Below are positions 1 through 58,461 of a stretch of 64,000 bases of DNA, piece after piece (the stretch's first letter is position 1; the number at the start of each line of letters is the position of its first letter). Both the position numbers and the translations under genes were made by a program. Below the pieces are notes generated by a model that had not been told where the DNA came from, did no database searches, and saw only the letters and a program-made list of their open reading frames with translations. The stretch comes from Microcoleus sp. (GTDB lineage Bacteria > Cyanobacteriota > Cyanobacteriia > Cyanobacteriales > Microcoleaceae). The stretch is taken from contig JAYFMW010000003.1 in assembly GCA_042408215.1 (NCBI GenBank), positions 256,001 through 320,000 on the forward strand. The letters are read 5' to 3'.

Positions 1-872
1 TGCACTATCTCCTCGATCGACAATCGGTTCTTAGTAAGGATTTCAATCCTTTCTCCATCCGTTAAATCCGCTACAAAATCCGCTGCCGAACCTTCTTCCT
101 TCCCTTGAACTATCAATTTACACAACTTTTGAGTCAGAAACGGCTGTCCTCCAGTCCACTCCAAAATCTCTTGTAAAACTGCTTGAGGATTATCAAATTT
201 CCCCTCAAACCCCTTGACTAAAGGCAAACATTCGTGTAATTGAAAACCCTGAAGTTCAATAGCTCGACCAATATTAAATGGCGTGCGAGTCGCATCGCTA
301 ATTAAATCCGATGGCGTAGCTACTCCCAGCAAAGCAAATGTTAACCGCTGATATTCTGATTTGTGAGCGCGTTTATTGTAGCAAGATCTAATCAGGGCAA
401 AAAAGTCATCTAGCGATTCTTTGAAACTGAGAACACTATCAATTTCATCAATAAAAATGACAATGTTTTGAGAAATCTTGACCAGCAATAATTCTTCAAT
501 TAACTCTCCTAAACGTTGGACTGGCGACATCAACTCTCTCTCCCGCCACCAAGTCATAAACTCCACTGGGTTAAACAGGTTGAAATTGCACAAAAGCTTG
601 TAAGCGACGCCGCCGTACCACTTATCCAGAGAGACTTGCTGATTGCCAATATCCGAAAGGTCGATCGTAGCACAAGCAATGCCATCAGCGGAGAGTTTTT
701 GTACAGTTCGCACCAGCAAACTAGATTTGCCCATTTGTCGGGAATTGAGCACGTAACAAAACTCTCCGGCTTTTAGGGCTTGATCAAGTTCAGAGTCAGC
801 TTTTCGCACTACATAAGTAGGTGAATCTTGCGGGAGACTGCCGCCGATTTGATATTGGTAATCGACTGTCAT
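1..872 (-). CDS. AAA-like (AAA_35/STAND-related) domain protein, N-terminal part; runs off the window start
   Basis: Not in the ORF track; read manually from ATG at 872: [26 protein letters not shown]...[13 protein letters not shown] (Walker A)...[10 protein letters not shown] (Walker B)...[14 protein letters not shown]...[13 protein letters not shown]. Confidence 0.9.
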
Positions 873-891
873 TATCTTGCCTATACTTAGA

Positions 892-1416
892 TTATTTTGT
901 CACTTGTGTTGTGCCTTTACCGCAAACCACTTCACCATTTTCATAGGTGGGTTCTGCTGGTTTAATCGGACCGGGTTTGTCAGCTTCGCACAATATGGAT
1001 ATTGTTGTTATTATTTCATTTTGAGCAGCATTAGGAACAACTTCTTTAGCAGGAACTCGAAAGACACCGCCGACATAACTCTTAAGTTGTGGTTGCTTGG
1101 ATACTCCATAATTAAAGGCAGTTTGCTTTGTGGCGCGCAATGAATATTTGTAATTTGTTGTCTCGGTTTTAAGGCCAAGTCCTAAAGCATCAACAGAAGT
1201 GCCAAAAACACTTTTTTCTACATAATAGAATTGCTGACCTTTGTTTATTGAGCTAACATACTGTTTCGCTTCCGTTTGCTTTGCCTTCCTGGCCGTATCC
1301 CGAGATGATAGCGGATCGCCAATCACGACTCCTCCAATAATCCAGATTATAAACAATAAGCATCCGCAACCGGCATCACTTGAATTGCTAATACTTGATT
1401 CTTGATTTTTAGTCAT
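892..1416 (-). CDS. Type IV pilin-like G/H family protein
   Basis: TM segment followed by [22 protein letters not shown]...LKSYVGGVF...ILCEA, typical of cyanobacterial Pilin_GH; no GFTLIE prepilin motif. Confidence 0.8.
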
Positions 1417-1494
1417 GGTTTTGTCTCCTTAAATGGTATATACAAGGCGATCGCATCTTTCCCATAACTCGATCGCCTCAACTTCAACTAATCC

Positions 1495-2055
1495 CTAAGT
1501 TCGCAGCTTTTGTCCCTCTTTACGGTCAATTGATGTTGGCTGAATCGCTTTACTGCCGATCGCAAAATCGCGCAATTCCACCCTCGTAAACTTCACACCC
1601 CAAGGATCGGTGATTGTATCCAACTCCTCCACTAAAGCATTATTGAGTAGATTGCGAGCCGTGTAAAGTTCCTCTACATTTAATTTAGCAATATGAGTCC
1701 GAATTGAAAGAATCAGCATATTGAACATCGCTTCTTTGAGATTCTGCACCTTGTAGGAAGCTTTTTCTAAGTCAATGATTCGCCAGTACACAATAAATTC
1801 AAGGGTGACGGAAACGCGATCGCCTGTTGTGCATTGTTGCGGTGCCAGGTTTAACATTTGCTCGCGCAGAGTTTGTTGATAGGCGACTGTTTCGACAAAG
1901 GGAATCAGAAATGTCAAACCAGGTTCGAGTTTTTTGCGATCGTACTTTCCGAAAATTTCAACTAAGGCTTCATCTCCTTGACGGACAATTTTAACACTGC
2001 TGACTAAGGATACACCGGTGATTGCAAACAACACCATCAAAAAATACTGATACAT
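1495..2055 (-). CDS. SPFH/stomatin-like (paraslipin) protein, short
   Basis: N-terminal TM, SVKIVRQGDEALVE.FGKY...LEPGL.FLIPFVE, DPWGVKFTRVELRD. Confidence 0.9.
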   Translation of the reverse strand: MYQYFLMVLFAITGVSLVSSVKIVRQGDEALVEIFGKYDRKKLEPGLTFLIPFVETVAYQQTLREQMLNLAPQQCTTGDRVSVTLEFIVYWRIIDLEKASYKVQNLKEAMFNMLILSIRTHIAKLNVEELYTARNLLNNALVEELDTITDPWGVKFTRVELRDFAIGSKAIQPTSIDRKEGQKLRT

Positions 2056-2112
2056 AGTGAATCTCCTGGTAATTTGAAGCTGTGAACTAAAGATGATAGG
2101 ATTTGCACATCG

Positions 2113-2286
2113 GGGCCTAGAAACCGGGTTTTTTACGAAAATATTTCGTTATAGCCCGCAGATTCGGTAAAAAACCCGGTTTCTCAACACACCGTGCGTG
2201 GGCCTAGAAACCGGGTTTTTTACGAAAATATTTCGTTATAGCCCGCAGATTCGGTAAAAAACCCGGTTTCTCAACACACCGTGCGT
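2113..2286. repeat. Two tandem identical 87-bp copies of an AGAAACCGGGTTTT...AAAACCCGGTTTCT hairpin/MITE-like element
   Basis: Units 2113-2199 and 2200-2286 read directly; related copies at ~25052-25116, 32540-32606, 41499-41565, 44215-44247, 53036-53100, 54559-54624. Confidence 0.9.
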
Positions 2287-2319
2287 AATTCCTGAATGAA
2301 TTGATTTTGTTACAAAGGT

Positions 2320-2865
2320 TTAGTTGTTGATGTGAATTAATTTGTCAGGTACAACAATCAGCGTGTTTCCTTCGCGGCGCAAAACGTAAACTTTTTGTCT
2401 GGGTGCGATCGCCTCTTGGCGATCTTCATTGCGGGCTTTCCACGAAGCACCTTCATAAATCACCATTCCGGTTTCTCCCGATAAAATTTCTGAGATAGTT
2501 GTCGCTTCGGTTGCTTCGGGAATCACAAACTTTTTGCGAACAATGAAAATCGGTCGAATCCAAATAATCAGGGCGAGAGATATTCCCATCCAGTAGAATA
2601 TCTGCCAGTCAAAATCTTCATACATTACCAGCGCCCAACTAAAATTAAATGCGATCGATCCTCTCCACAAAATAAAGGATTCAATTAGAGCAGAAGCTCC
2701 CATCATCAGCACGTAAAACCTGTATTTTTGGGGCTGGGTTTTTTGGATGAATAGATCGATCGCACTCAGCACAACTGCGATGAGCAACCACAACATCGGC
2801 GGCGTGAATGCGAAAGTTGGTTGATTAGTTGCTAATGCTAGTGGCCAACTTAGGATAGAGTACAT
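2320..2865 (-). CDS. NfeD family membrane protein
   Basis: Three TM segments plus OB-fold tail (GETGMVIYEGASWKAR...KVYVLRREGNTLIV); adjacent to the SPFH gene. Confidence 0.9.
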   Translation of the reverse strand: MYSILSWPLALATNQPTFAFTPPMLWLLIAVVLSAIDLFIQKTQPQKYRFYVLMMGASALIESFILWRGSIAFNFSWALVMYEDFDWQIFYWMGISLALIIWIRPIFIVRKKFVIPEATEATTISEILSGETGMVIYEGASWKARNEDRQEAIAPRQKVYVLRREGNTLIVVPDKLIHINN

Positions 2866-2955
2866 AATTCTTCACCCCCTTGTGACAGTGCTCAACCTGG
2901 TTATTTCTAATCTAATCAGGTGGCTATTTGAGTTGGCGACTGAGTTATTTGAGAA

Positions 2956-2988
2956 TTCATCGACTTTTCATCGACTTTTCATCGACTT
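2956..2988. promoter_or_regulatory. Three perfect 11-bp direct repeats (TTCATCGACTT), putative operator
   Basis: Seen directly in the divergent intergenic region upstream of an HTH-containing gene. Confidence 0.55.
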
Positions 2989-3038
2989 TGGGACGCTTGG
3001 CATTTATGATGGTTTCAGTGTCTTAATTGTGATAAGCA

Positions 3039-4412
3039 ATGCCGCGATCGCTCAGGCTGCGTCTAAAGTGCATTCCCGCAGTTAAATCGTCTCTCCTAAG
3101 AAATGGCTTCCCCAGTCAGAAAATCTTGGCTGAGGATTTAGGGATAGCCCAATCTACTGTCAGCCATTTCCTGAATGGCAAACCTGTAGATTATGTTAAT
3201 TTCATCGAAATTTGTCGCGGATTGAATCAGGAATGGCGCGATATAGCCGATTTTGAGCTGGAATCTCTGCCCGATGAGGTGTTGCCAAGATCTGCAAAAA
3301 TTGCGATCGCCCAATCCAGTGCAGACCATGAATTAGCTGTCAATTTGAGCGAAATTACTAACACAAAACAGTCAATAATTCAACCCTTGCCAGCCGCAGA
3401 ATTGCCAGGAGGACAAGTAGATTTAGCTTCTCGTTTTTATATCGAGCGTTATCCCATCGAATCTCGCTGTTATGAAACGATTAGCCAACCGGGATCTCTC
3501 ATCCGTATTAAAGCTCCGAGACAGATGGGCAAAACTTCTTTAATGGCGAGGATTTTGCATCATGCAGAACAGCAAGGTTCTCGCACGGTGGCGCTGAGTT
3601 TTCAACTAGCAAATAGGAGAGTTTTCGCTAATTCAGATACATTTTTGCAGTGGTTTTGTGCTAGCGTCGGTCAAGAATTAGGAATGCTGGAACAGTTGCC
3701 TAAGTGTTGGGAATTAGCAGATTTGATTGGCAGTAATCAGTGCTGTAAGGCTTACTTTGAACAGTATTTGCTGTCTGAATCCTCAAGACCTCTGACCTTG
3801 GGTTTGGATGAGAGCGATCGCCTATTTGAATCCCCGGAAATTGCCGATGACTTTTTTGGGTTATTACGAGCTTTGCACGAAGAAGCAAAACGGCGAGATA
3901 TTTGGAAAAAGTTTCGCTTAATTGTGGTGCATTCTACGGAAGTTTATATCCCGCTGGATGTGAATAAATCGCCGTTTAATGTGGGATTGCCGATTGAATT
4001 ACCGGAATTTAATGAGCAGCAGGTGCAAGAATTGGCAAGGCGGCACGGATTGAATTGGATTGCGAATGAAGTTGCAGAATTGATGGCGTTAGTGGGAGGA
4101 CATCCCTATTTAGTGCGGCTGGGAATATATCACATTTCGCGTCAAGATGTGACTTTAAATCAATTGGTGAAATCCCCGGCCACAGAAGCGGAAATTTACA
4201 GCGATCATTTGCGGCGGCATTTGTGGAATTTAGAGAAATATTCGGAATTAATGGATGCGATGAGAGAGGTTGTGAGTGGTTCCCAGCCTGTTAGATTGAG
4301 GTCAGAATTAGGGTTTAAGTTAAATAGTATGGGGTTGGTGAAATTTAACGGAAATAATTGCATTCCGAGATGCCGATTGTATGAGGAATATTTTCGCGAT
4401 CGCGTAGGTTAA
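3039..4412 (+). CDS. XRE-type HTH plus AAA_35 ATPase domain protein
   Basis: SQKILAEDLGIAQSTVSHFLNG (HTH); KAPRQMGKTSL (Walker A); LGLDESD (Walker B); SPFNVGLPIELPEF; VGGHPYL. Confidence 0.9.
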   Translation: MPRSLRLRLKCIPAVKSSLLRNGFPSQKILAEDLGIAQSTVSHFLNGKPVDYVNFIEICRGLNQEWRDIADFELESLPDEVLPRSAKIAIAQSSADHELAVNLSEITNTKQSIIQPLPAAELPGGQVDLASRFYIERYPIESRCYETISQPGSLIRIKAPRQMGKTSLMARILHHAEQQGSRTVALSFQLANRRVFANSDTFLQWFCASVGQELGMLEQLPKCWELADLIGSNQCCKAYFEQYLLSESSRPLTLGLDESDRLFESPEIADDFFGLLRALHEEAKRRDIWKKFRLIVVHSTEVYIPLDVNKSPFNVGLPIELPEFNEQQVQELARRHGLNWIANEVAELMALVGGHPYLVRLGIYHISRQDVTLNQLVKSPATEAEIYSDHLRRHLWNLEKYSELMDAMREVVSGSQPVRLRSELGFKLNSMGLVKFNGNNCIPRCRLYEEYFRDRVG

Positions 4413-4656
4413 TACCAATTTCTATAAACATCGCCCACGCAATTTAAGCAGCTTACAAATAGGAATCCGGCGATGAAGCCGCTGACCGCTTTTTGCAGCG
4501 CGTGCTTTACCGCATCAACAGGCTCAACTTATTTTGATCTGCTGTCGCGCATCTAAAAATTATCTAGGAAGCGCCCTGGCGGTTAAGAAACCCAGCGCAA
4601 AACTATTTCCCGTCTGTGCCCAAACCTCCAGGGCGGTTGGTATCACAAGAAATTAA

Positions 4657-5025
4657 TTAGTCCTCAGTGTCCACAAAAACTGTCACCGCAGCCACCGCAA
4701 TCAACATTTCATCATTTTTATCATTCAGAGATGCGATCGCCCTTCCTTCCACAACCATTCCCCCCTGCTCCACAATCAGAGTTTTGCTCCCGAAAGGGAG
4801 CACAGCCAATACCTCCTCCGATCGCACTTGTTCAGGATAAGGAACCGCCACCTTTACTTCCACAATCATTTGATTGGGATCGCTCAAACCCGCCACTTCC
4901 CAGACACCCAGCAAAGCATTATGGGCGATCGCATTCCGTACAGCCCTTGCCGCGGCTACAGTCGGTTCCTGTCCGTGCTGGTCTACACCCATGCCCATTT
5001 CAATGATTAAACGTTTCCGCACCAT
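4657..5025 (-). CDS. Lin0512 family protein
   Basis: MVRKRLIIEMGMGVDQHGQEPTVAAARAVRNAI; start moved to ATG 5025. Confidence 0.85.
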   Translation of the reverse strand: MVRKRLIIEMGMGVDQHGQEPTVAAARAVRNAIAHNALLGVWEVAGLSDPNQMIVEVKVAVPYPEQVRSEEVLAVLPFGSKTLIVEQGGMVVEGRAIASLNDKNDEMLIAVAAVTVFVDTED

Positions 5026-5207
5026 AGCTACCTCTTTGTTACTTTTTGTTTTTAGTCGATCGCGCTCTTCCCAAAACAATTATCAACCAAAACGACTGCA
5101 TTTTTTAGACTTTAACAATTTTCTCAAACAACAAAATAATAACTTATGGTAATATAACCAAATTCACCTTTCCTCGCGGACTGCAAAATACATCGCCAGC
5201 TTGAATC

Positions 5208-6122
5208 ATGGATAGTTTTCTGCCAATTGCCTACTTTCAAAACCAATTTCTCCCATTTACCGAAGCCAAAGTTTCCATAGCCACCCACGCACTGCACTAC
5301 GGAACCGGAGTCTTAGGCGGCTTGCGGGGAATACCCGACCCCGAAAACCCCGATCGAATCTTGCTATTTAGATTAGACCGCCACTGTCAAAGACTAAGCC
5401 AAAGTGCCAGCTTCCTCAAATGCGATTTGCTCGCCGACAAAATCCAAGAAATAATCGTTGATTTTGTCAAGAAAAATCAGCCCACCAAATCTTTTTATAT
5501 CCGCCCATTTATCTACACCTCAAGTTTGGGAATAGCCCCCCGACTGCACAACGTAGAAACAGACTTTTTTGTCTACGGATTAGAACTCTCAGACTATTTA
5601 CCCAAAGAAGGAGTCAACTGTAGAATTAGCTCTTGGTACCGCCAAGAAGACCGCAGTTTACCCTTGAGAGGAAAAATTAGCGGCGCTTACATTACCTCAG
5701 CCTTAGCCAAAACAGAAGCAGTAGAATCCGGCTTCGATGAAGCTATTATGATGAATACTCAGGGAAAAGTCAGCGAAGCTTCAGGGATGAACATATTTGT
5801 CGCCAGAAACGGTAAATTAGTTACTCCCGGTTTCGATCAAGATATTCTCGAAGGAATTACCAGAGACAGTGCGATAACTATCGCCAGAGACTTAGGAATT
5901 GAAGTCATAGAAAGACCAGTTGACAAATCAGAACTCTTGATTGCTGACGAGATTTTTCTGTGCGGCACCGCAGCTAAAATCACCCCAATTAACCGAATCG
6001 AAAACTATCATTTACCAAAAGAGCGACCCATCACCAAAAAACTCTTGGAAAAACTCACTGGAATCATCGAAAATCGCGACAGCAAGTACAAAGACTGGGT
6101 ATTTCCGATCAGTCTAAATTGA
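5208..6122 (+). CDS. ilvE: Branched-chain amino acid aminotransferase
   Basis: ATHALHYGTG, GKISGAY, GFDEAIM, ILEGITR, FLCGTAAKITP. Confidence 0.95.
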   Translation: MDSFLPIAYFQNQFLPFTEAKVSIATHALHYGTGVLGGLRGIPDPENPDRILLFRLDRHCQRLSQSASFLKCDLLADKIQEIIVDFVKKNQPTKSFYIRPFIYTSSLGIAPRLHNVETDFFVYGLELSDYLPKEGVNCRISSWYRQEDRSLPLRGKISGAYITSALAKTEAVESGFDEAIMMNTQGKVSEASGMNIFVARNGKLVTPGFDQDILEGITRDSAITIARDLGIEVIERPVDKSELLIADEIFLCGTAAKITPINRIENYHLPKERPITKKLLEKLTGIIENRDSKYKDWVFPISLN

Positions 6123-6139
6123 CCGTAAATACAGCGTAT

Positions 6140-6438
6140 CCCAGGTTTATGAAGTGCAGTAGGGACACTCAAGCGTGCTCTTCTTAGTGTCAACTTAACG
6201 TTAAACCCAGTCACAGATTGCTGTTTGACCATTAAGCCTAGATCCCCCCTAGCCCCCCTTAAGAAGGGGGGGACAGGAGTCTTTTCAAAGTCCCCCTTCT
6301 TAAGGGGGATTTAGGGGGTTCTAGACTTAGGTAAAAGCGAGAGATACCAAGGCTTTCAGGCGATTGTTGACACTCCTTGGGCGAAAGCCTTTGTCCCTAC
6401 GGGTATCTATCGATAAGCGGGTGTACTTCATAAACGCG
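6140..6438. mobile_element. Nested composite MITE/REP element
   Basis: Outer GTTTATGAAGT...ACTTCATAAAC IR; GTAGGGACAC...GTCCCTAC REP arms; inner GTGTCAAC...GTTGACAC IR; core CCCCCTAGCCCCCCTTAAGAAGGGGGG...GGGGGATTTAGGGGG. Homologous copy at 12481-12780. Confidence 0.75.
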
Positions 6439-6492
6439 GGTTCACCAATATCTGTGATTCACATCCAGGGTATTTATAAACCCGCCCCTACC

Positions 6493-7347
6493 TTAATCGC
6501 ACAAAACAGCCGCATGATGTTGAATATGATCTTCCATAAAACTCGCGACAAAATAATAACTATGATCGTAACCTTCCTGCATTCTTAAAGTTAGCGGCTG
6601 TCCCGCTTTTGCACAAGCCTCCGCGAACACTTCCGGCAACAACTGCCCATCAGCAAGATATGAATCTGCCCTGCCGCAATCAATCAGAATCGGACGGTTA
6701 TATGAGGCTTCAACTACCAAGTCGCTAGCATCCCAAGCCCGCCAATGCTCTCGATTGTCACCGAGGTAGTGACCGAAGATTTTTTGTCCCCAAGGGCAAC
6801 GCATGGGCGCGCAAATGGGCGCAAAAGCAGAAACAGAAAGATAGCGATCGCCATTTTTTAACGCACAAATTAAAGCCCCATGTCCCCCCATCGAATGACC
6901 GAAAATACCCTGTTTTTCCGGTATAACTGGAAAATTTTCTGCTATTAAATTAGGCAATTCATCAACAACATAACTGTACATTTGATAGTGAGAATTCCAA
7001 GGTGCAACTGCGGCATCAACATAAAAACCCGCACCACTTCCCAAATCCCAATCGTCATCTTCGCCAGCAATACCAGTATGGCGCGGGCTAGTATCGGGCG
7101 CAACCAGCATTAACCCATATTTTGATGCCAATTGCTGCGCTCCCGCTTTTGCCATAAAATTCTCTTCGGTGCTGGTTAATCCTGATAGGAAATACAGGAT
7201 TGGTACGGGTTGAGACTGGGCTTGTGGCGGCTGATATACAGCGAATTTCATCTCGCTATTGCAGGTGGAGGATTGATGGCTGTAAAAGCCGAGTTTACCG
7301 CCAAAAATTTTATGTTCTTTGTGCTGTTTTAGGGATGCGGATATCAT
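6493..7347 (-). CDS. fghA: S-formylglutathione hydrolase
   Basis: LSGLT, APDTSPR, GHSMGGHGAL nucleophile elbow, GYDHSYYF; downstream of the class III ADH. Confidence 0.95.
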   Translation of the reverse strand: MISASLKQHKEHKIFGGKLGFYSHQSSTCNSEMKFAVYQPPQAQSQPVPILYFLSGLTSTEENFMAKAGAQQLASKYGLMLVAPDTSPRHTGIAGEDDDWDLGSGAGFYVDAAVAPWNSHYQMYSYVVDELPNLIAENFPVIPEKQGIFGHSMGGHGALICALKNGDRYLSVSAFAPICAPMRCPWGQKIFGHYLGDNREHWRAWDASDLVVEASYNRPILIDCGRADSYLADGQLLPEVFAEACAKAGQPLTLRMQEGYDHSYYFVASFMEDHIQHHAAVLCD

Positions 7348-7382
7348 ATTAATTCTCTTTAATTTAGGAATGGGATTTTTTT

Positions 7383-7409
7383 ACCGCAGAGGGCGCAGAG
7401 GGCGCAGAG
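7383..7409. repeat. ACCGCAGAGGGCGCAGAG(GGCGCAGAG) dispersed 9-mer repeat family
   Basis: Also at 9354-9380 (reverse) and 22263-22289. Confidence 0.7.
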
Positions 7410-7436
7410 GAAGAGAGAAGAGAGCAGAGTTTTTAT

Positions 7437-9308
<1,872 letters not shown>

Positions 9309-51921: not shown

Positions 51922-52295
51922 AAATTTTAATCTCCTGAATTGAAAGCGATCGATATTGTAGAGGCAAATGATTGATTGCCGGTACAATTATCATTGTAGA
52001 GAATTAATGGCGGGCGATCGGATCGGTGTTCCCCTATCTTTAGATAGATATTTCCGTCCTTTGTCGCAGTCTCTCGCAGCCAAAAGCGCCTAAAAGTGCG
52101 ATCGACCCTCAAGCTGCTAATTACTGCTAATTACTAAGAAAATTGGTAGAATGGCAAAAGTAATGTTAGGAAAAAAACTGTAAATAGAGTGTGGTAATGT
52201 GCCTTGTAATTAATTATAATAGTCCGCAGCGCGTCATCGGAGCGCTGAACAGCCAAAATTTGATATGATATTATTCAAATATTTATTATAGATCC

Positions 52296-52970
52296 ATGTC
52301 CGAATCCCGAACACTTGAGTCAGCCGTAGAATTTGCCGAAAATTCAGAGCCGCGCTGTCCATGTATCCTGTTGCTAGACGTTTCCTACTCTATGTCCGGC
52401 GCACCCATTAATGCCTTAAATGAGGGATTACGCATCTTCAGAGACGGGCTGAATCAAGATGGATTAACCAAGAAGCGCGTTGAAATAGCTATTGTTACCT
52501 TTGGTAGTAAAGTAAAGGTGGTTCAGGAATTTGTGACTGTCGATCGGTTTTGGCCACAGACAATAAAAGTGGGAGGAGCAACCTACATGGGAGCTGGAAT
52601 TGACAAAGCTTTAGACATTCTTCAAGCCCGAAAAGCCCTATATAACGCGAATGCAATCAGTTATTATCGCCCTTGGGTATTTATGATTACAGATGGTGAA
52701 CCCACTGACAATGATCTTGTTGTCGATCGCGCAGCCCAACGGATTCGGGATGAGGAAGCTAGAAAAAAAGTTGCTTTCTTTGCTGTGGGTGTAGAAGGGG
52801 TTAACATGACCCGCCTCAGTCAAATTGTCGTCCGCACACCTGTGAAGTTAAAAGGGCTGAAATTTCGGGAGATGTTCCTATGGCTGTCAGCTAGTATGGA
52901 TAGAGTATCTCATTCTAAATTAGATGAACAAGTCCCCCTGAAATCGCCCGCCGGATGGGGTTCTGTTTGA
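52296..52970 (+). CDS. TerY-like vWA domain protein, copy 1
   Basis: EPRCPCILLLDVSYSM (MIDAS), YYRPWVFMITDGEP, F.WLSASM. Confidence 0.92.
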   Translation: MSESRTLESAVEFAENSEPRCPCILLLDVSYSMSGAPINALNEGLRIFRDGLNQDGLTKKRVEIAIVTFGSKVKVVQEFVTVDRFWPQTIKVGGATYMGAGIDKALDILQARKALYNANAISYYRPWVFMITDGEPTDNDLVVDRAAQRIRDEEARKKVAFFAVGVEGVNMTRLSQIVVRTPVKLKGLKFREMFLWLSASMDRVSHSKLDEQVPLKSPAGWGSV

Positions 52971-53025
52971 TGAATTACCAAGTTGAGTTTAAGCCGAAAG
53001 GGAGCAAAGATTTAGAATCTTTGCA
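52970..53025 (+). pseudogene. RelE/ParE-like toxin N-terminal remnant, truncated at a MITE
   Basis: MNYQVEFKPKGSKDLESL, ATG overlapping the TerY stop. Confidence 0.55.
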
Positions 53026-53137
53026 TGGGAGCTCAGCCACCGGTTTTTTTACGAAAATACTTCCTTAGAGCATCGCAGACTCGGTAAAAACCCGGTTTCT
53101 AGGAGTCGGAGTGCGTCCAAGACTGGAGGAAATATCA

Positions 53138-53335
53138 ATGATTCCGTTACATCCTGAGTTTATTACCAAAAACGGCAAAAAAGAATTTGTAGTGATACCT
53201 TAAAAAGAATTTGCAGCACTGCAATAATTAATTGCCGATCGGGAAGATTTAATGGATTTGAGGGCGGCAAAAAAGGAAGATGCAAATCTGTATTCAGTGC
53301 CGTTAGTAGAGGTGAAAAGAATCTTAGGATTATAG
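53138..53335 (+). pseudogene. Antitoxin-like gene copy with two in-frame TAA stops
   Basis: Homologous to 54661-54858; CCT TAA and CAA TAA. Confidence 0.8.
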
Positions 53336-53410
53336 AGGGTTGTGGTGGGGATTAGTATGCAATTTAACCGTCAATCTAACAGAATCCGTTGCCGAACTTC
53401 CTGACCTCCG

Positions 53411-53593: not shown

Positions 53594-53737
53594 GGGCAAA
53601 AGTAATGTTAGGAAAAAAACTGTAAATAGAGTGTGGTAATGTGCCTTGTAATTAATTATAATAGTCCGCAGCGCGTCATCGGAGCGCTGAACAGCCAAAA
53701 TATGGTATGATATTATTCAAATATTTATCCTACAACC

Positions 53738-54406
53738 ATGTCTGAATCCCGAAGACTTGAGGAAGCCGTAGACTTTGCCGACAATCCAGAGCCGCGCTGT
53801 CCCTGTATCCTGTTGCTAGACGTTTCCGGCTCTATGGGCGGCGCACCCATTAATGCCTTAAATGAGGGATTACGCATCTTCAGAGACGAGCTGAATCAAG
53901 ATGGCTTAACCAAGAAGCGCGTTGAAGTAGCTATTGTTACCTTTGAGAGTACAGTAAAGGTGGTTCAGGATTTTGTAACTGTCGATCGGTTTCAGCCACC
54001 AACCCTAGAAGTAGGAGGAGCAACATATATGGGAGCTGGAATTGACAAAGCTTTAGACATTCTTCACGCCCGCAAAGCCTTATATAAGGCGAATGCAATC
54101 GATTATTATCGCCCTTGGGTATTTATGATTACAGATGGTGAACCCAGTGACAATGATGTTGTCAATCGGGCGGCCCAACGGATTCGGGATGAGGAAGCTA
54201 GAAAAAAAGTTGCTTTCTTTGCTGTGGGTGTAGAAGGGGTGAATATGACGCGCCTCAGTCAAATTGTCGTCCGCCCACCTATGAAGTTAACAGGGCTGAA
54301 TTTTCAGGAGATGTTCCAATGGCTGTCAGCTAGTATGAGTGGAGTATCTCATTCTCAATTAGATGAACAAGTTCCCCTGCAAAAGCCCGGATGGGGTTCT
54401 GTTTGA
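53738..54406 (+). CDS. TerY-like vWA domain protein, copy 2
   Basis: DVSGSM MIDAS; same motifs as copy 1. Confidence 0.92.
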   Translation: MSESRRLEEAVDFADNPEPRCPCILLLDVSGSMGGAPINALNEGLRIFRDELNQDGLTKKRVEVAIVTFESTVKVVQDFVTVDRFQPPTLEVGGATYMGAGIDKALDILHARKALYKANAIDYYRPWVFMITDGEPSDNDVVNRAAQRIRDEEARKKVAFFAVGVEGVNMTRLSQIVVRPPMKLTGLNFQEMFQWLSASMSGVSHSQLDEQVPLQKPGWGSV

Positions 54407-54537
54407 TGAAGTACGAAGTTTAGTTTAAGCCGATCGCATCCCATATTTAAAATCTTTTTCAGCGGAGGTACCAAGCCGAATTTTATTTTAAATTAAGGAA
54501 GATGTTTTGGTAATCCACCGCGTCAAACATCGAAAAC
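54406..54537 (+). pseudogene. RelE/ParE-like toxin remnant (stops, internal deletion)
   Basis: MKYEV*FKP...SRILFKIK/EDVLVIHRVKHRK. Confidence 0.6.
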
Positions 54538-54660
54538 TGGACTTAAGCATGGGATTCCAGAAACCGGGTTTTTTACGAAAAAACTTTGTTATAGCATCGT
54601 AGATTCAGTAAAAACCCGGTTTCTTCGGTCGGGGTGCGTCCAAAACCGGAGGAAATATCG

Positions 54661-54858
54661 ATGATTCCGTTACATCCTCAGTTTATTACCAAAAACGGTA
54701 AAAAAGAATTTGCAGTGATACCTTACCAAGAATTTGCAGCACTGCAAGCATTAATTGCTGATATGGAAGATTTGATGGATTTGAGAGCGGCAAAAGAGGA
54801 AGATGCAGATCGACCTTCTGTGCCGTTAGCAGAGGTGAAAAAAATGTTAGGATTGTAG
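54661..54858 (+). CDS. Type II antitoxin-like small protein (Phd/YefM-like)
   Basis: FITKNGKKEFAVIPYQEF...EDLMDLRAAK...VPLAEVKKMLGL; GGAGG RBS. Confidence 0.75.
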   Translation: MIPLHPQFITKNGKKEFAVIPYQEFAALQALIADMEDLMDLRAAKEEDADRPSVPLAEVKKMLGL

Positions 54859-54880
54859 AGGGTTGTGGTGGGGAATTAGT

Positions 54881-57199
54881 ATGCAAGTCAAGCGTCAGTC
54901 TGATGGACAAGTGATTAATCTGGGGTCTGAGATAGCTCGTGGTGGTGAAGGGGCAATTCACCCATACCCTCCAGATGCGTCACTGGTGGCAAAAGTCTAT
55001 CACGCCAACAAGCTAAAAGATATTGATAGTGACAAACTTCGAGTAATGTTGACTAACCCCCCTGATGACTCAGTAAAAAAAGATCACGGGTGTGTCTCGA
55101 TTGCTTGGCCGGTTGATTTACTACTTTCTATTAATAGTAGTCAGTCAATCATTGGCTTCCTCATGCCGCGAGTGTCGATGCAGCAAGTGCGACCCATCCA
55201 CGATTACTACAGCCGTAAAACTCGCCGTGAGAAAAATCTCGGTTTTAATTACCTCTCCTTGCACCGCACGGCGCGAAACTTTGCAGCCGCGATGAGTGCT
55301 TTACACGCGAAACAGTATGTCATTGGCGATGTGAATGAGTCGAATATCTTGGTTTATGACACAGCGATGGTAACGCTGGTAGATACGGACTCTTTTCAAG
55401 TTCGCGATTCCCAACGGGGTAAAGTTTATCGCTGTCGGGTGGGGAAACCAGAGTACACGCCGCCGGAACTTCAGGGTCAAAAGTTTGCAGATTATGACCG
55501 CACGCCGGAACATGATTTGTTTGGGTTAGGGGTGTTGATTTTTCAGTTATTGATGGAAGGGACACACCCTTTTGTGGGAGTGTATCAAGGAAGTGGAGAA
55601 CCACCACCAACGGAGAAGCGGATTTTAGCAGGGCATTTTCCCCACGGAACCAAGAAAGTGCCTTATAACCATAAGCCAATGGCACTACCGTTTGAGGTGT
55701 TGCATCCAACGCTGCGGCAGTTGTTTGTATGCTGTTTTGAGGATGGGCACAGTAAGCCCCAAGCGCGACCTGATGCTCGGACTTGGATGAAGGCATTAGA
55801 TGAAGCAGAAAAAGCTTTGGTGAGTTGTGGGGTAAATTCTGAGCATCGGTATGGAGGACATTTGAGCGATTGTCCTTGGTGTGAGAGGAAAAAACAACTC
55901 AAAGGAATCGATCCATTTCCGGCAATGTCAGGGGGACAATCTCATATTCCTGTCCAAATCCCTTTGCCCCCTGCAAGCAAATCCAAACCTGTCACTTCGC
56001 CGACACCTACTCTGACTCCTGCTCCTACCGCGATTCCTTATCAGCCGATTCCTACCGCAACACCTACACCTCCATCTGGGAATATCCCTTCACCTAACAC
56101 CACAAGGCGCACTTTTTTAGAATTGGCGGGTTTTGCCGGAGGCGGGTTTATTGTTGCTGTGCTGAGTCAAACTCTTTGGAATAAATCTACTCCTTCTGCT
56201 AATAACCCATCTCCATCGCGATCGTCTAACCAGTCAGCATCTCCTTCATTATCCCCAGACGAGCGGCTACCGGAAAACCCATCGTCAACACCCTCAAATT
56301 CCTTAAAAACATTTCAATTTCAAACAGTAACGGTTAATTCCACCGGGCAAATCGCCAACACCCGCCAAGAAGAAGCCAAGTTTTTTACAGAAAATCTCCC
56401 CGGTGGTATCACTATAGACATGATCGCGATTGCTGGGGGCAGTTTCGTGATGGGTTCCCCCAGTACAGAAAAAGAGCGAGAAGACAATGAAGGGCCACAG
56501 CATAATGTCACTGTAGCCCCTTTTTTTATGGGAAAATATGAAGTGACTCAGGCTCAGTGGCGTGCAGTAGCAGGTTTACCGAAAGTAAATATTGACCTCA
56601 ATCCTAGTCCATCCAATTTCAAAGGCGATGATTTGCCCGTTGAGCAGGTTTCTTGGTACGAGACAGTAGAAGCTTGCGCGAGGTTATCTCGATTAACAGG
56701 GCGTGATTATCGCTTACCGAGTGAAGCGGAATGGGAGTATGCCTGTAGAGCAGGTACGACAACGCCTTTTTACTTTGGAGAAACAATTACCTCCGACTTA
56801 GTTAATTGTGATGGCAATGATTCTTACGGTGCTGCACCCAAGGGAATCTATCGTGAGAAGACAACAGATGTAGGCACTTTTCCCCCTAATGCCTTTGGTT
56901 TATACGATATGCACGGCAACGTCTGGGAATGGTGCGCTGATCCTTGGCACGGTAATTATAATGGCGCACCTACCGATGGAAGTGTCTGGGATAAAAAAGA
57001 TAATGATAATCGTTATCAAAAAAGCATTGATTTATTAATCATGTCAAGAAATGATGACAGAAGACGGCTGCTGCGCGGCGGCTCGTGTTTCAAGTATCCG
57101 CAGATTTGCCGCTCGGCCATTCGCGGCCTTCATGAGCCGGACAACCGCTACAACACCTTCGGCTTTCGTTTTGTCTGTGTGTGGCTGCGTGGACTATAG
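54881..57199 (+). CDS. TerY-P-type (YegI-like) protein kinase, Pro-rich linker, TM, and FGE-sulfatase/C-type lectin domain
   Basis: RGGEGAI, AKVYH, IAWPVD, GFLMP, IGDVNESN, LVDTDSFQ, C.VG.PEYTPPEL, THPF, CPWC; then F.MGS, KYEVTQAQW, RLPSEAEWEYACRAG, NAFGLYDMHGNVWEWC, RGGS, GFR. Confidence 0.9.
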   Translation: MQVKRQSDGQVINLGSEIARGGEGAIHPYPPDASLVAKVYHANKLKDIDSDKLRVMLTNPPDDSVKKDHGCVSIAWPVDLLLSINSSQSIIGFLMPRVSMQQVRPIHDYYSRKTRREKNLGFNYLSLHRTARNFAAAMSALHAKQYVIGDVNESNILVYDTAMVTLVDTDSFQVRDSQRGKVYRCRVGKPEYTPPELQGQKFADYDRTPEHDLFGLGVLIFQLLMEGTHPFVGVYQGSGEPPPTEKRILAGHFPHGTKKVPYNHKPMALPFEVLHPTLRQLFVCCFEDGHSKPQARPDARTWMKALDEAEKALVSCGVNSEHRYGGHLSDCPWCERKKQLKGIDPFPAMSGGQSHIPVQIPLPPASKSKPVTSPTPTLTPAPTAIPYQPIPTATPTPPSGNIPSPNTTRRTFLELAGFAGGGFIVAVLSQTLWNKSTPSANNPSPSRSSNQSASPSLSPDERLPENPSSTPSNSLKTFQFQTVTVNSTGQIANTRQEEAKFFTENLPGGITIDMIAIAGGSFVMGSPSTEKEREDNEGPQHNVTVAPFFMGKYEVTQAQWRAVAGLPKVNIDLNPSPSNFKGDDLPVEQVSWYETVEACARLSRLTGRDYRLPSEAEWEYACRAGTTTPFYFGETITSDLVNCDGNDSYGAAPKGIYREKTTDVGTFPPNAFGLYDMHGNVWEWCADPWHGNYNGAPTDGSVWDKKDNDNRYQKSIDLLIMSRNDDRRRLLRGGSCFKYPQICRSAIRGLHEPDNRYNTFGFRFVCVWLRGL

Positions 57200-57423
57200 C
57201 ACTTGACACTTTTGCCCTTTTGTGCTATGCACTTCTTTCTTTTACAGTTGGGTTGTCGGCAGAGGCGACTCGATTTATTTTCGCTCAAATCACTGTTGAG
57301 ACTGCTAAGTAGTAGGGTTCGTCGCCCGAAACAATCTGTAAATCAAATCAACAATCTCACAGCGACGTACCGCGAGAGTAAGTCATATCAAATCCGTCAG
57401 CATCCGCCCTTCACCTGCAATCG

Positions 57424-57669: not shown

Positions 57670-58461
57670 TTAAGCTTCCGGTTCAATTCCGAGCGATCGC
57701 AATTGTGCAGCTAATCGATCGCCTCGCTGGCGTTCTCTCTCCGATTGTGCTGCTAATCGATCGCCTCGCTGGCGTTCTCTCTCAGCGCGTTCTTCACCTA
57801 TTAACAACAGATTTCCTTGCAAATCCCACCAGCGCAGCCACGGCAATTCTACATTGAGATATTCGCCTTGCCAAATTCCCAACTCAACTCCCATTTGACT
57901 AATTGGGTAGTGTCCCCGTTCATTGGCAGCTAATAATTCAAAGCCATTTTCAACTAAATGATACAATTCAATGCTAGCTTTTTGAACTTCATAAATGCCG
58001 TAAAATGCCGGACGAATCACCTGTTCGTAAATCCAAAACTTGCCCGCTTTGCGATCGCCTTCATTGTCAGAAGAAGACAAAGGAGTATTGTCTCGTTCTT
58101 CTGAACCGTCCCCCGAAACAAATTCTAATATAATTAACGGCGCAACATATTCTTGCCACAACACGTAAGAACGCCGCATTTGACCATTCAATGCAGGCGG
58201 TACGTTAGGCACATAAAACCAGTCTGGCGCTTCTGCACCTCGCTCAAGCGGCTCAGTCAGTCGCCAGTAAATACCCGAATCTTGACCAATGCAGTATTGT
58301 CCATCGGGATGCAATTGCTGCAATACAGGTTTAATTGAATCAGTTAACAGTATGCTTTGAGGATGTTCTTGGAGATTTTTCACAAAAGTGCCGTCAGAGT
58401 CAGGTAATTGAGTGTGGTCTGGCAGAGTTAGACTTAATTTTGGGGCGGCAGTAAAAGTCAT
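57670..58461 (-). CDS. Uma2 family endonuclease-fold protein
   Basis: LPDHTQLPDSDG..VKN.QEHPQ, APDWFYVP, ILEFVS, WLRWWD. Confidence 0.92.
   Translation of the reverse strand: MTFTAAPKLSLTLPDHTQLPDSDGTFVKNLQEHPQSILLTDSIKPVLQQLHPDGQYCIGQDSGIYWRLTEPLERGAEAPDWFYVPNVPPALNGQMRRSYVLWQEYVAPLIILEFVSGDGSEERDNTPLSSSDNEGDRKAGKFWIYEQVIRPAFYGIYEVQKASIELYHLVENGFELLAANERGHYPISQMGVELGIWQGEYLNVELPWLRWWDLQGNLLLIGEERAERERQRGDRLAAQSERERQRGDRLAAQLRSLGIEPEA

Follow-up and report, generated by a model that had tools for sequence, protein, structure and literature searches.

The 3′ end of a gene encoding a putative membrane Ser/Thr kinase of the YegI type in the cyanobacterium Microcoleus sp. carries a variable region (VR) of the kind written by diversity-generating retroelements (DGRs), and this region has most likely become a fossil whose diversification has ceased, a reading to which a probability of about 0.8 is assigned. 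The gene lies within a stretch of 64,000 nucleotides, hereafter the window (assembly GCA_042408215.1, contig JAYFMW010000003.1, positions 256,001 to 320,000 of the forward strand), whose own numbering is used for all coordinates given without a contig or locus label. The VR is regarded as a fossil because the assembly of the genome in question, termed G000, contains neither a DGR reverse transcriptase (RT) nor an Avd gene nor a template repeat (TR). An earlier note, made from the sequence of the window alone, had recognized the DGR-like character of the gene end and had proposed that it is diversified in trans; the first of these claims has held, whereas the second is not supported.

Evidence for a DGR-Type Variable Region

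Positions 57000–57260 of the window, used as a query against 144 genomes of the family, find matches in 61 of them, G000 counted. Two genomes of the same genus, G104 and G105, each have two matches lying 2 kb apart: one consists of a gene end together with its flanks, whereas the other corresponds exactly to query positions 66–192, i.e., to 57065–57191. The latter copy is the template, which reads ...TGG AAC AAC AAT CCG AGG AAT..., and the gene-end copy differs from it at adenines. At the G104 locus, the order is FGE target, bAvd (PF22296), RT (RVT_1), and template, and the same succession of target, bAvd, RT, and TR is found on a metagenome contig, L128. The latter serves as a positive control, as its own VR is mismatched with its own TR at 13 adenine sites and at 0 other sites. 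The constant 3′ end of the window VR, ...TGTGTGGCTGCGTG, is common to the TRs of G104, G105, and L128, and past it VRs and TRs diverge. The VR of the window (57065–57191, + strand) aligns end to end with these three templates, with its hypervariable columns at template adenines.

At least eight copies constitute the VR subfamily (the window, G040, three in G021, and three in G020), with 82–86% identity over VR and flanks. Among these eight close copies, three or more different bases occur at 19 of 33 template-adenine columns versus 5 of 105 non-adenine columns, as defined by the G104 and G105 templates (Fisher test, 1.9e-10), counts that take in a few template pad columns misplaced by the aligner. 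Upstream of the VR, only 3 of 122 columns of the same alignment have three or more bases. The variable columns correspond to the first two positions of AAY codons, the third base being fixed. Comparison of the window VR with its nearest template, that of L128, reveals mismatches at 13 of 25 adenine sites versus 12 of 86 other sites (p 2e-4); for the G105 template the counts are 16 of 29 and 14 of 82. These counts indicate that the adenine bias is real, yet that neither template is cognate. A 19-nucleotide template-like pattern searched across genome contigs matched 59 loci from many phyla, none of them cognate, the best having at least 21 non-adenine mismatches in 111 bases. Of two template patterns applied to metagenomes, the first gave 0 hits and the second 11 loci, of which L128 was the nearest and not cognate. 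As judged by comparison with the templates of relatives, positions 57065–57191 are a true DGR-type VR at the 3′ end of an FGE/C-type-lectin (CLec) domain. This agrees with the earlier note, which had placed such a region on a CLec domain beyond a transmembrane segment.

An ordinary, fast-evolving CLec loop under selection, unrelated to any DGR, would be in keeping with the lack of a template in the genome and with the conservation of FGE-domain C-termini in many non-DGR proteins. It is nevertheless a very improbable explanation for a stretch that is sharply bounded in its nucleotide-level homology to the templates of three genuine DGRs, and in which codon position 3 is fixed while positions 1 and 2 take three to four different bases. 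Moreover, the VR is depleted of adenine, with 15 A in 127 bases.

The composition of the VR also sets it apart from its surroundings. Its GC content is 0.606, as compared with 0.330 in 56950–57064 and 0.442 in the whole window; by position, values of 0.60 at 57050–57149 and 0.57 at 57100–57199 stand against 0.33 at 56950–57049. The earlier note had correctly described this GC-rich stretch after an AT-rich one, as well as the encoded peptide, with which the open reading frame (ORF) ends (...RLLRGGSCFKYPQICRSAIRGLHEPDNRYNTFGFRFVCVWLRGL, followed by the stop codon). Its derivation of the NNY codons from AAY codons stands with respect to the adenine-type pattern and fails for one ATT (57119–57121), which is ATT in related templates, too, and hence not a mutated AAY. 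The VR is followed by a conserved block (57192–57246, + strand; 54 of 57 bases identical to G020a) that is common to the VRs of relatives and not to their templates in alignments. This block comprises the stop codon, a 7-bp inverted repeat (ATAGCAC at 57196–57202 and GTGCTAT at 57222–57228), and a T-rich tract (AT skew of −0.50 at 57150–57249), the latter two being accurately noted before. The inverted repeat has 0 matches in 100 shuffles, though its fold is weak (−4.2 kcal/mol, z −1.56, equaled by 17 of 200 shuffles). A conserved cruciform at 57196–57228 was rejected as a family feature, the fold being weak, broken in G040, and missing, like the repeat itself, at the active VR of G104.

Two small length changes affect the tail of the VR. 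An insertion of two bases, TG, at 57176–57177 shifts the frame so that the protein ends in ...VCVWLRGL, not in ...VCVAAWT(K); the shifted tail is also found in G040, G021a, and G021c. In addition, two bases before the stop codon (57195/57196), present in relatives and in contigs of sequencing runs X1, X2, and X4, are missing from the window, shortening ...WLRGLNSP to ...WLRGL.

Absence of DGR Machinery from the Genome

The G000 assembly comprises 7.36 Mb in 30 contigs at a completeness of 99.98%. Reverse transcriptases are found in G000 at four RVT_1 places, all with RVT_N and two also with GIIM (group-II maturase) and HNH domains; all four are of the group-II-intron type and none is of the DGR type. 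The DGR RTs of G104 and L128 bear no RVT_N, GIIM, or HNH domains. Used as a query in G000, the G104 RT detects the same four RVT_1 places only, at 28–33% identity. The top score for bAvd (PF22296) in G000 is 21.2 bits, against a cut-off of 40. A template repeat was detected in G000 neither by short-word blastn nor by an adenine-tolerant ungapped scan of both strands, whose best non-self match (30 non-adenine mismatches in 136 bases) is A-rich junk. Two patterns that catch both VR and TR in G104 retrieve VRs only from G000, G020, G021, and G040. The statement of the earlier note that no RT or template lies inside the window is correct, whereas its proposal of diversification in trans is not supported: the outcome that the note itself had named as a refutation, the lack of RT and template, holds for this genome, which is without DGR RT, without bAvd above the cut-off, and without a template repeat. 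Relatives of G000, on the other hand, do carry both RT and template.

G000 harbors seven FGE paralogs with VR-like ends, the window copy included. The six further genes are located at C26:25784-26536, C30:334620-335336, C30:699299-699976, C17:616565-617227, C17:658325-659002, and C30:689322-689962, the last of which is interrupted by stop codons. The same adenine-tolerant scan found no template for any of these six ends in G000. A relic of a DGR cassette is present at C28:148824-149058 (L009 8825-9059); it measures 235 bp and is 84% identical to the 3′ end of the G104 VR, the spacer, and the first ~50 bases of avd. The relic sits in an intergenic gap with an alpha/beta-hydrolase gene on one side and a glycosyltransferase gene on the other.

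Four changes at non-adenine sites are private to the window VR and absent from the seven other close copies: 57088 G>T, 57094 T>G, 57102 G>A, and 57135 C>A. The first converts TGG to TGT and, thereby, the Trp of the GGSW motif to Cys. The earlier note had listed TGT for TGG and one AAG as exceptions to the adenine rule; both are genuine, corresponding to 57088 and 57094. A contig of sequencing run X3 that extends over 56911–57195 differs at 5 of 285 bases, a sign that the VR may be stable; X3 may, however, be the source sample.

The alternative that a DGR of the same organism escaped assembly, as it might on a plasmid, in a prophage, or in a collapsed repeat, and still diversifies the VR in trans has some points in its favor. 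Remote targets are common among cyanobacterial DGRs, amounting to 76 of 121 in the section of PMC7517822 drawn upon here. Furthermore, both constant blocks of the VR, 5′ and 3′, are intact and conserved, as is the block downstream of it, and the assembly is divided into 30 contigs. We nonetheless consider this alternative quite unlikely. RT, bAvd, and TR are lacking in an almost complete assembly, and the machinery is equally absent from G020, which is 99% complete and has at least five related VR-like copies. The private non-adenine substitutions, including that in the GGSW Trp codon kept by the seven other close copies, fit drift after homing had ended, and the relic on C28 represents decay.

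Several observations weigh against regarding the VR as a fossil. The completeness of the 30-contig assembly is derived from marker genes only, and a DGR on an unassembled plasmid or repeat is possible. Four genes of the 23S_rRNA_IVP family, which is Avd-like, exist in G000, one of them 8 kb from a truncated RT on C30. The ORF is intact and the homing flanks of the VR are well kept, as illustrated by the 54 of 57 bases shared with G020a after the VR, so that cDNA from a matching DGR, should one arrive, could still be taken up at the site. The searches yielded no exactly cognate template anywhere, and even the nearest one, that of L128, keeps 12 non-adenine mismatches; the adenine rule appears demonstrable only statistically and across paralogs, by way of the templates of relatives. 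The 21 sequencing runs, finally, were compared as Logan contigs and not as raw reads, with 0.55 of the sampled words in the best run. As to the Avd-like genes, none of the four adjoins a DGR-type RT in G000. The 369-amino acid RT ORF on C30 at 8 kb from one of them was considered as part of a hidden DGR and rejected: it has RVT_N as in the group-II copies, is 33% identical to the G104 RT over 95 amino acids, and has no template.

Probable Loss of the Retroelement across the Family

Members of this DGR RT clade are found in 26 of the 144 family genomes, 10 of which belong to the 78 genomes of the genus; the two genomes of the genus that comprises G020 and G021 have none. When this distribution is cross-tallied with the VR-like matches, 13 of the 60 matching relatives have the RT and 47 lack it at E<=1e-40, in a tally that covers only this one RT clade and that includes some weak matches and some incomplete assemblies. 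The DGR RT genes of several relatives (e.g., G054, G023, G019, G132, G133, and G135) contain in-frame stops or are fragmentary, which suggests that retroelement decay is frequent in the family. With the RT missing from 47 of 60 VR-bearing relatives and in-frame stops in several of its copies, it looks as though, as a rule, targets in this group survive while the retroelement is lost.

The Carrier Gene and Its Mosaic Origin

The gene that carries the VR (54881–57199, + strand) encodes a protein of 772 amino acids if translation starts at the ATG at 54881, or of 778 if an in-frame TTG at 54863 is used. A YegI-type kinase with a Cys motif is followed by a Pro-rich linker, a hydrophobic segment, a Ser/Pro linker, and the FGE/CLec domain with the VR. 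The hydrophobic segment (residues 411–433 counted from the ATG; 56111–56179, + strand), preceded by TTRRTFLEL, is the only strongly hydrophobic one revealed by a hydropathy scan and lies between the kinase and FGE domains; it is predicted to act as a membrane anchor. The FGE-sulfatase/CLec-fold domain (56417–57175, + strand) spans residues 519–771 and matches Pfam PF03781 with E 1e-53 over profile positions 4–254 of 255. A profile of 16 homologs matches PvdO (PDB 5hha, 6e-50), FGE (1y1e), and the DGR variable protein TvpA of Treponema denticola (2y3c, 4e-26), with which the domain shares the FGE-type C-lectin fold. TvpA itself, a lipoprotein, is the target of a DGR located next to it and contains no kinase. 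An AlphaFold model of the CLec domain was not used on account of its mean pLDDT of 51.3 (16 sequences), with values <50 at residues 132–268, a range that includes the VR.

The different parts of this gene have different nearest relatives. The kinase part, i.e., the first 400 amino acids, has orthologs with 84–92% identity in G040, G056, and G066, and a kinase paralog of ~61% identity occurs in nearly every genome of the genus, with a match in 74 of 79 genomes. The three orthologs end in TPR repeats, not in CLec, in keeping with the TPR families annotated for the protein clusters to which they correspond. At the DNA level, likeness to the G040, G056, and G066 loci runs from the vWA gene (see below) to 56075 and is found again from 57423. 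The intervening 56081–57246 shares 89–95% identity with a gene from a genome of another genus, G020, where a different, Hanks-type kinase stands in front. Against the G020a gene, 696 of 765 bases are identical upstream of the VR, 100 of 127 within it, and 54 of 57 downstream. The left junction (56076–56081, + strand), where likeness to the TPR-type orthologs stops and likeness to the kinase-FGE gene G020:C117 starts, is sharp. It is bridged by contigs of two other runs from two studies (X1 record 1 and X2 record 8) and is therefore not an assembly chimera.

At the protein level, the nearest relative of the kinase segment is the TPR-type gene of G040 (321/340 amino acids), that of the linkers is P0003 (57/58 and 95/102), and those of the CLec core are G020a (205/228) and P0002 (199/228), while for the VR segment the best relative is never above 23/37. 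When 5.8 billion proteins were searched, at least 25 other clusters among the best 120 aligned over 90% or more of the query, contained PF03781, and thus had the full kinase-FGE architecture; their sources name some of them as Microcoleus and one as a planctomycete. The idea of a one-off, recent graft in which CLec replaced a TPR sensor was softened in view of these clusters and of the multi-part mosaic. Because the nearest relative changes segment by segment, the gene is best described as belonging to a receptor-kinase family whose members exchange sensor modules.

As a further alternative, VR diversity might now be generated independently of an RT, the many CLec-VR paralogs exchanging sequence by recombination or gene conversion, among themselves and across genomes, via the conserved blocks flanking the VR. 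The mosaic nature of the gene, in which kinase, linkers, and FGE core have different nearest relatives, the sharp DNA junction at 56076–56081, and the seven FGE paralogs with VR-like ends in G000 would all be compatible with this mechanism. The differences within the VR are, however, scattered single bases at positions 1 and 2 of former AAY codons rather than blocks shared by paralogs, and no second copy of the window VR, whole or in part, exists in G000. Recombination is therefore judged an unlikely source of the VR diversity, and a VR written by a DGR and fossilized since then remains the preferred reading.

A stretch of 87 bases in the Ser/Pro linker (56212–56298) is missing from G020a, and contigs of runs X1, X2, and X3 have GCC in its place. 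It represents an indel polymorphism within this linker. Downstream of the post-VR block, a spacer of third origin (57247–57422, + strand) extends to the point at which likeness to the orthologous G040 locus restarts (57423). It contains a dispersed ~60-nucleotide repeat (57308–57371), of which copies with 75–80% identity are located on C6, C30, C28, C14, and C13, and which is also found 3′ of the VR in G067, G092, and G064. The gene neighboring that of the kinase (57670–58461, − strand) belongs to the Uma2 family of putative restriction endonucleases. An Uma2-family gene likewise adjoins the kinase gene at a paralogous locus on C12 (L065 5792-6439), and another is situated near the C28 relic (L009 12093-12710).

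The Kinase, Its vWA Neighbors, and TerY-P Triads

The kinase domain with its C-terminal Cys motif, C..H..DCPWC, is encoded by 54899–55897 (+ strand). Residues 13–345 are 33% identical to Escherichia coli YegI over 336 amino acids (BLASTP, E 4e-51), the alignment running through the Cys motif, and the Pfam Pkinase match covers residues 125–238 (E 9e-9). Two vWA genes are encoded upstream. Copy 1 (52296–52970, + strand; Pfam VWA E 5e-10) is YegL/TerY-like, and copy 2 (53738–54406, + strand; E 8e-12), the one syntenic with the orthologous loci of G056, G066, and G040, specifies a protein with 55% identity to E. coli YegL (E 2e-71). Between copy 2 and the kinase gene lies a small ORF (54634–54858, + strand) with weak likeness to Phd/YefM antitoxins (Pfam PF02604 E 6e-6, below the cut-off; NCBIfam phd_fam 21.2 bits, cut-off 20.8). 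The two vWA genes are part of a tandem duplication (52258–53377 and 53700–54901, 86–89% identity) that takes in the vWA gene, the region of the Phd-like ORF, and 39 bases at the start of the kinase gene; at the orthologous loci of G056 and G066 there is a single copy.

The window thus provides counterparts of two components of the E. coli YegI/PphC/YegL set, which we take to be a TerY-P triad. It differs from this set in that a phosphatase gene is absent and in that the kinase extends into a membrane segment and a CLec domain. No PP2C phosphatase was found in the window by tblastn with the PP2C from C12 (nothing below E 1.4). The sole PphC-like PP2C_2 gene of G000 is located on C12, where it forms part of a paralogous set of vWA, PP2C_2, RNase III, Uma2, and a 704-amino acid kinase within one 8-kb stretch. 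The designation "TerY-type" in the earlier note is hence reasonable, considering the relatedness to YegI with its Cys motif and to YegL as well as the vWA/PP2C/kinase set on C12. The triad membership that it had implied is not upheld, since the window contributes two of three parts, namely vWA and a kinase with a zinc-ribbon-like Cys motif, and no PP2C. An anti-phage role of the locus, also implied, is hypothetical. With PADLOC, whose library is not confirmed to contain TerY-P models, neither the vWA proteins nor the PP2C matched anything even at E<=1, and the kinase matched generic kinase models only (PD-T4-6, MkoA, and mad6). According to the part of PMC11090510 considered here, a TerY-P triad combines a PP2C with a TerY-like vWA protein and a kinase bearing a zinc ribbon at its C-terminus, and triads in which an OB-fold replaces the ribbon are reported to be anti-phage, Gao et al. 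2020 being cited there.

Relation to Known DGR Targets

Kinase-CLec fusions have been described as DGR targets before. In the portion of the survey by Vallota-Eastman et al. (2020; PMC7517822) used here, a C-terminal CLec domain grafted onto an N-terminal Ser kinase is the commonest arrangement among cyanobacterial DGR targets and their paralogs. Remote targets are stated there to be frequent, with Nostoc PCC 7120 all3226 among the kinase-CLec cases, and a Nostoc paralog is said to keep "remnant TR-VR homology" with no RT nearby. The same portion contains the proposal that the diversifier is removed once a variant has been selected, and the hypotheses that the CLec domain of such kinases is an auto-inhibitory ligand sensor or a substrate selector. 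The window gene resembles the targets described there in having a C-terminal CLec/FGE domain, a VR at the 3′ end, and an N-terminal Ser/Thr kinase. Two differences exist. The survey, so far as consulted, concerns DGR-containing genomes, whereas G000 is wholly without a DGR; and its kinases are of the Hanks type, with motifs I–IX, whereas the kinase in the window is of the YegI type with a Cys motif and is accompanied by YegL-like vWA genes.

The cassettes at G104:C41, G105:C242, and L128 share with the window the VR scaffold RLLRGGSW...CRSA.R...GFR.VCV, the same limits, and a similar post-VR block; in all three, the order is target, bAvd, RT, and TR. Unlike the window, these active cassettes possess a template, and their targets lie in trypsin-EAD9, iSTAND, AAA, and vWA-CoxE neighborhoods. 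At L030 (G104:C41:5000-19000), for instance, positions 194–8138 hold an active-looking DGR amid trypsin-EAD9, iSTAND-EAD9, AAA, vWA-CoxE, and FGE-target genes. This locus matches the placement of cyanobacterial DGRs in vWA-MoxR "ternary" conflict systems, as given in the parts of PMC7159879 and PMC10907252 referred to here. No published link between TerY-P and DGRs, and nothing relevant on "orphan" VRs, was found in the literature, as judged from search results only. Kinase-CLec DGR targets and paralogs with remnant VRs are already known, and the window gene is an ordinary member of this class. What is added is modest: a DGR-free genome with seven VR-type ends and a relic, a carrier of the YegI/YegL type, and mapped mosaic junctions.

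Proposed History and Implications

The history of the gene may be envisaged as follows. An ancestor of the CLec-VR module would have been rewritten by a DGR, either in its own lineage or in that of a donor, and the retroelement would afterwards have been lost or would never have come along. Since then, the VR would have drifted by ordinary point mutation, as exemplified by the Trp-to-Cys change and three more. In the protein, kinase and Cys motif are expected to be cytoplasmic, with the CLec domain outside, past the membrane segment. Binding of a ligand to the surface encoded by 57089–57158 might switch the kinase, which may act in concert with the upstream-encoded YegL-like vWA proteins, and the YegK/PphC-like PP2C on C12 would be the likely counterpart. 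The binding specificity would thus have been written once by a DGR and would now be inherited like any other sequence.

A broader, tentative proposal, which we regard as possible rather than probable, is that CLec-VR modules, bounded by the conserved linker and the post-VR block, outlive the retroelement and travel without it. They would be shuffled among YegI-type and Hanks-type receptor kinases and across genera, so that DGR-less genomes would be stocked with pre-diversified, heritable sensors. This proposal is based on the 47 of 60 relatives without an RT and on the seven VR-type ends in G000.

A DGR-like C-terminus alone does not amount to active hypermutation. As most family genomes with VR-like ends are devoid of the retroelement, annotation pipelines and first-pass readers will over-call "hypervariable sensors". 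The gene described here offers an example of a receptor kinase in which the ligand-binding surface most likely took shape through past retro-mutagenesis before becoming fixed. It also exemplifies the exchange of modules among receptor kinases (TPR and CLec, with GUN4 and WD40 in the wider family), and it can be used to ask which ligands such frozen sensors bind.

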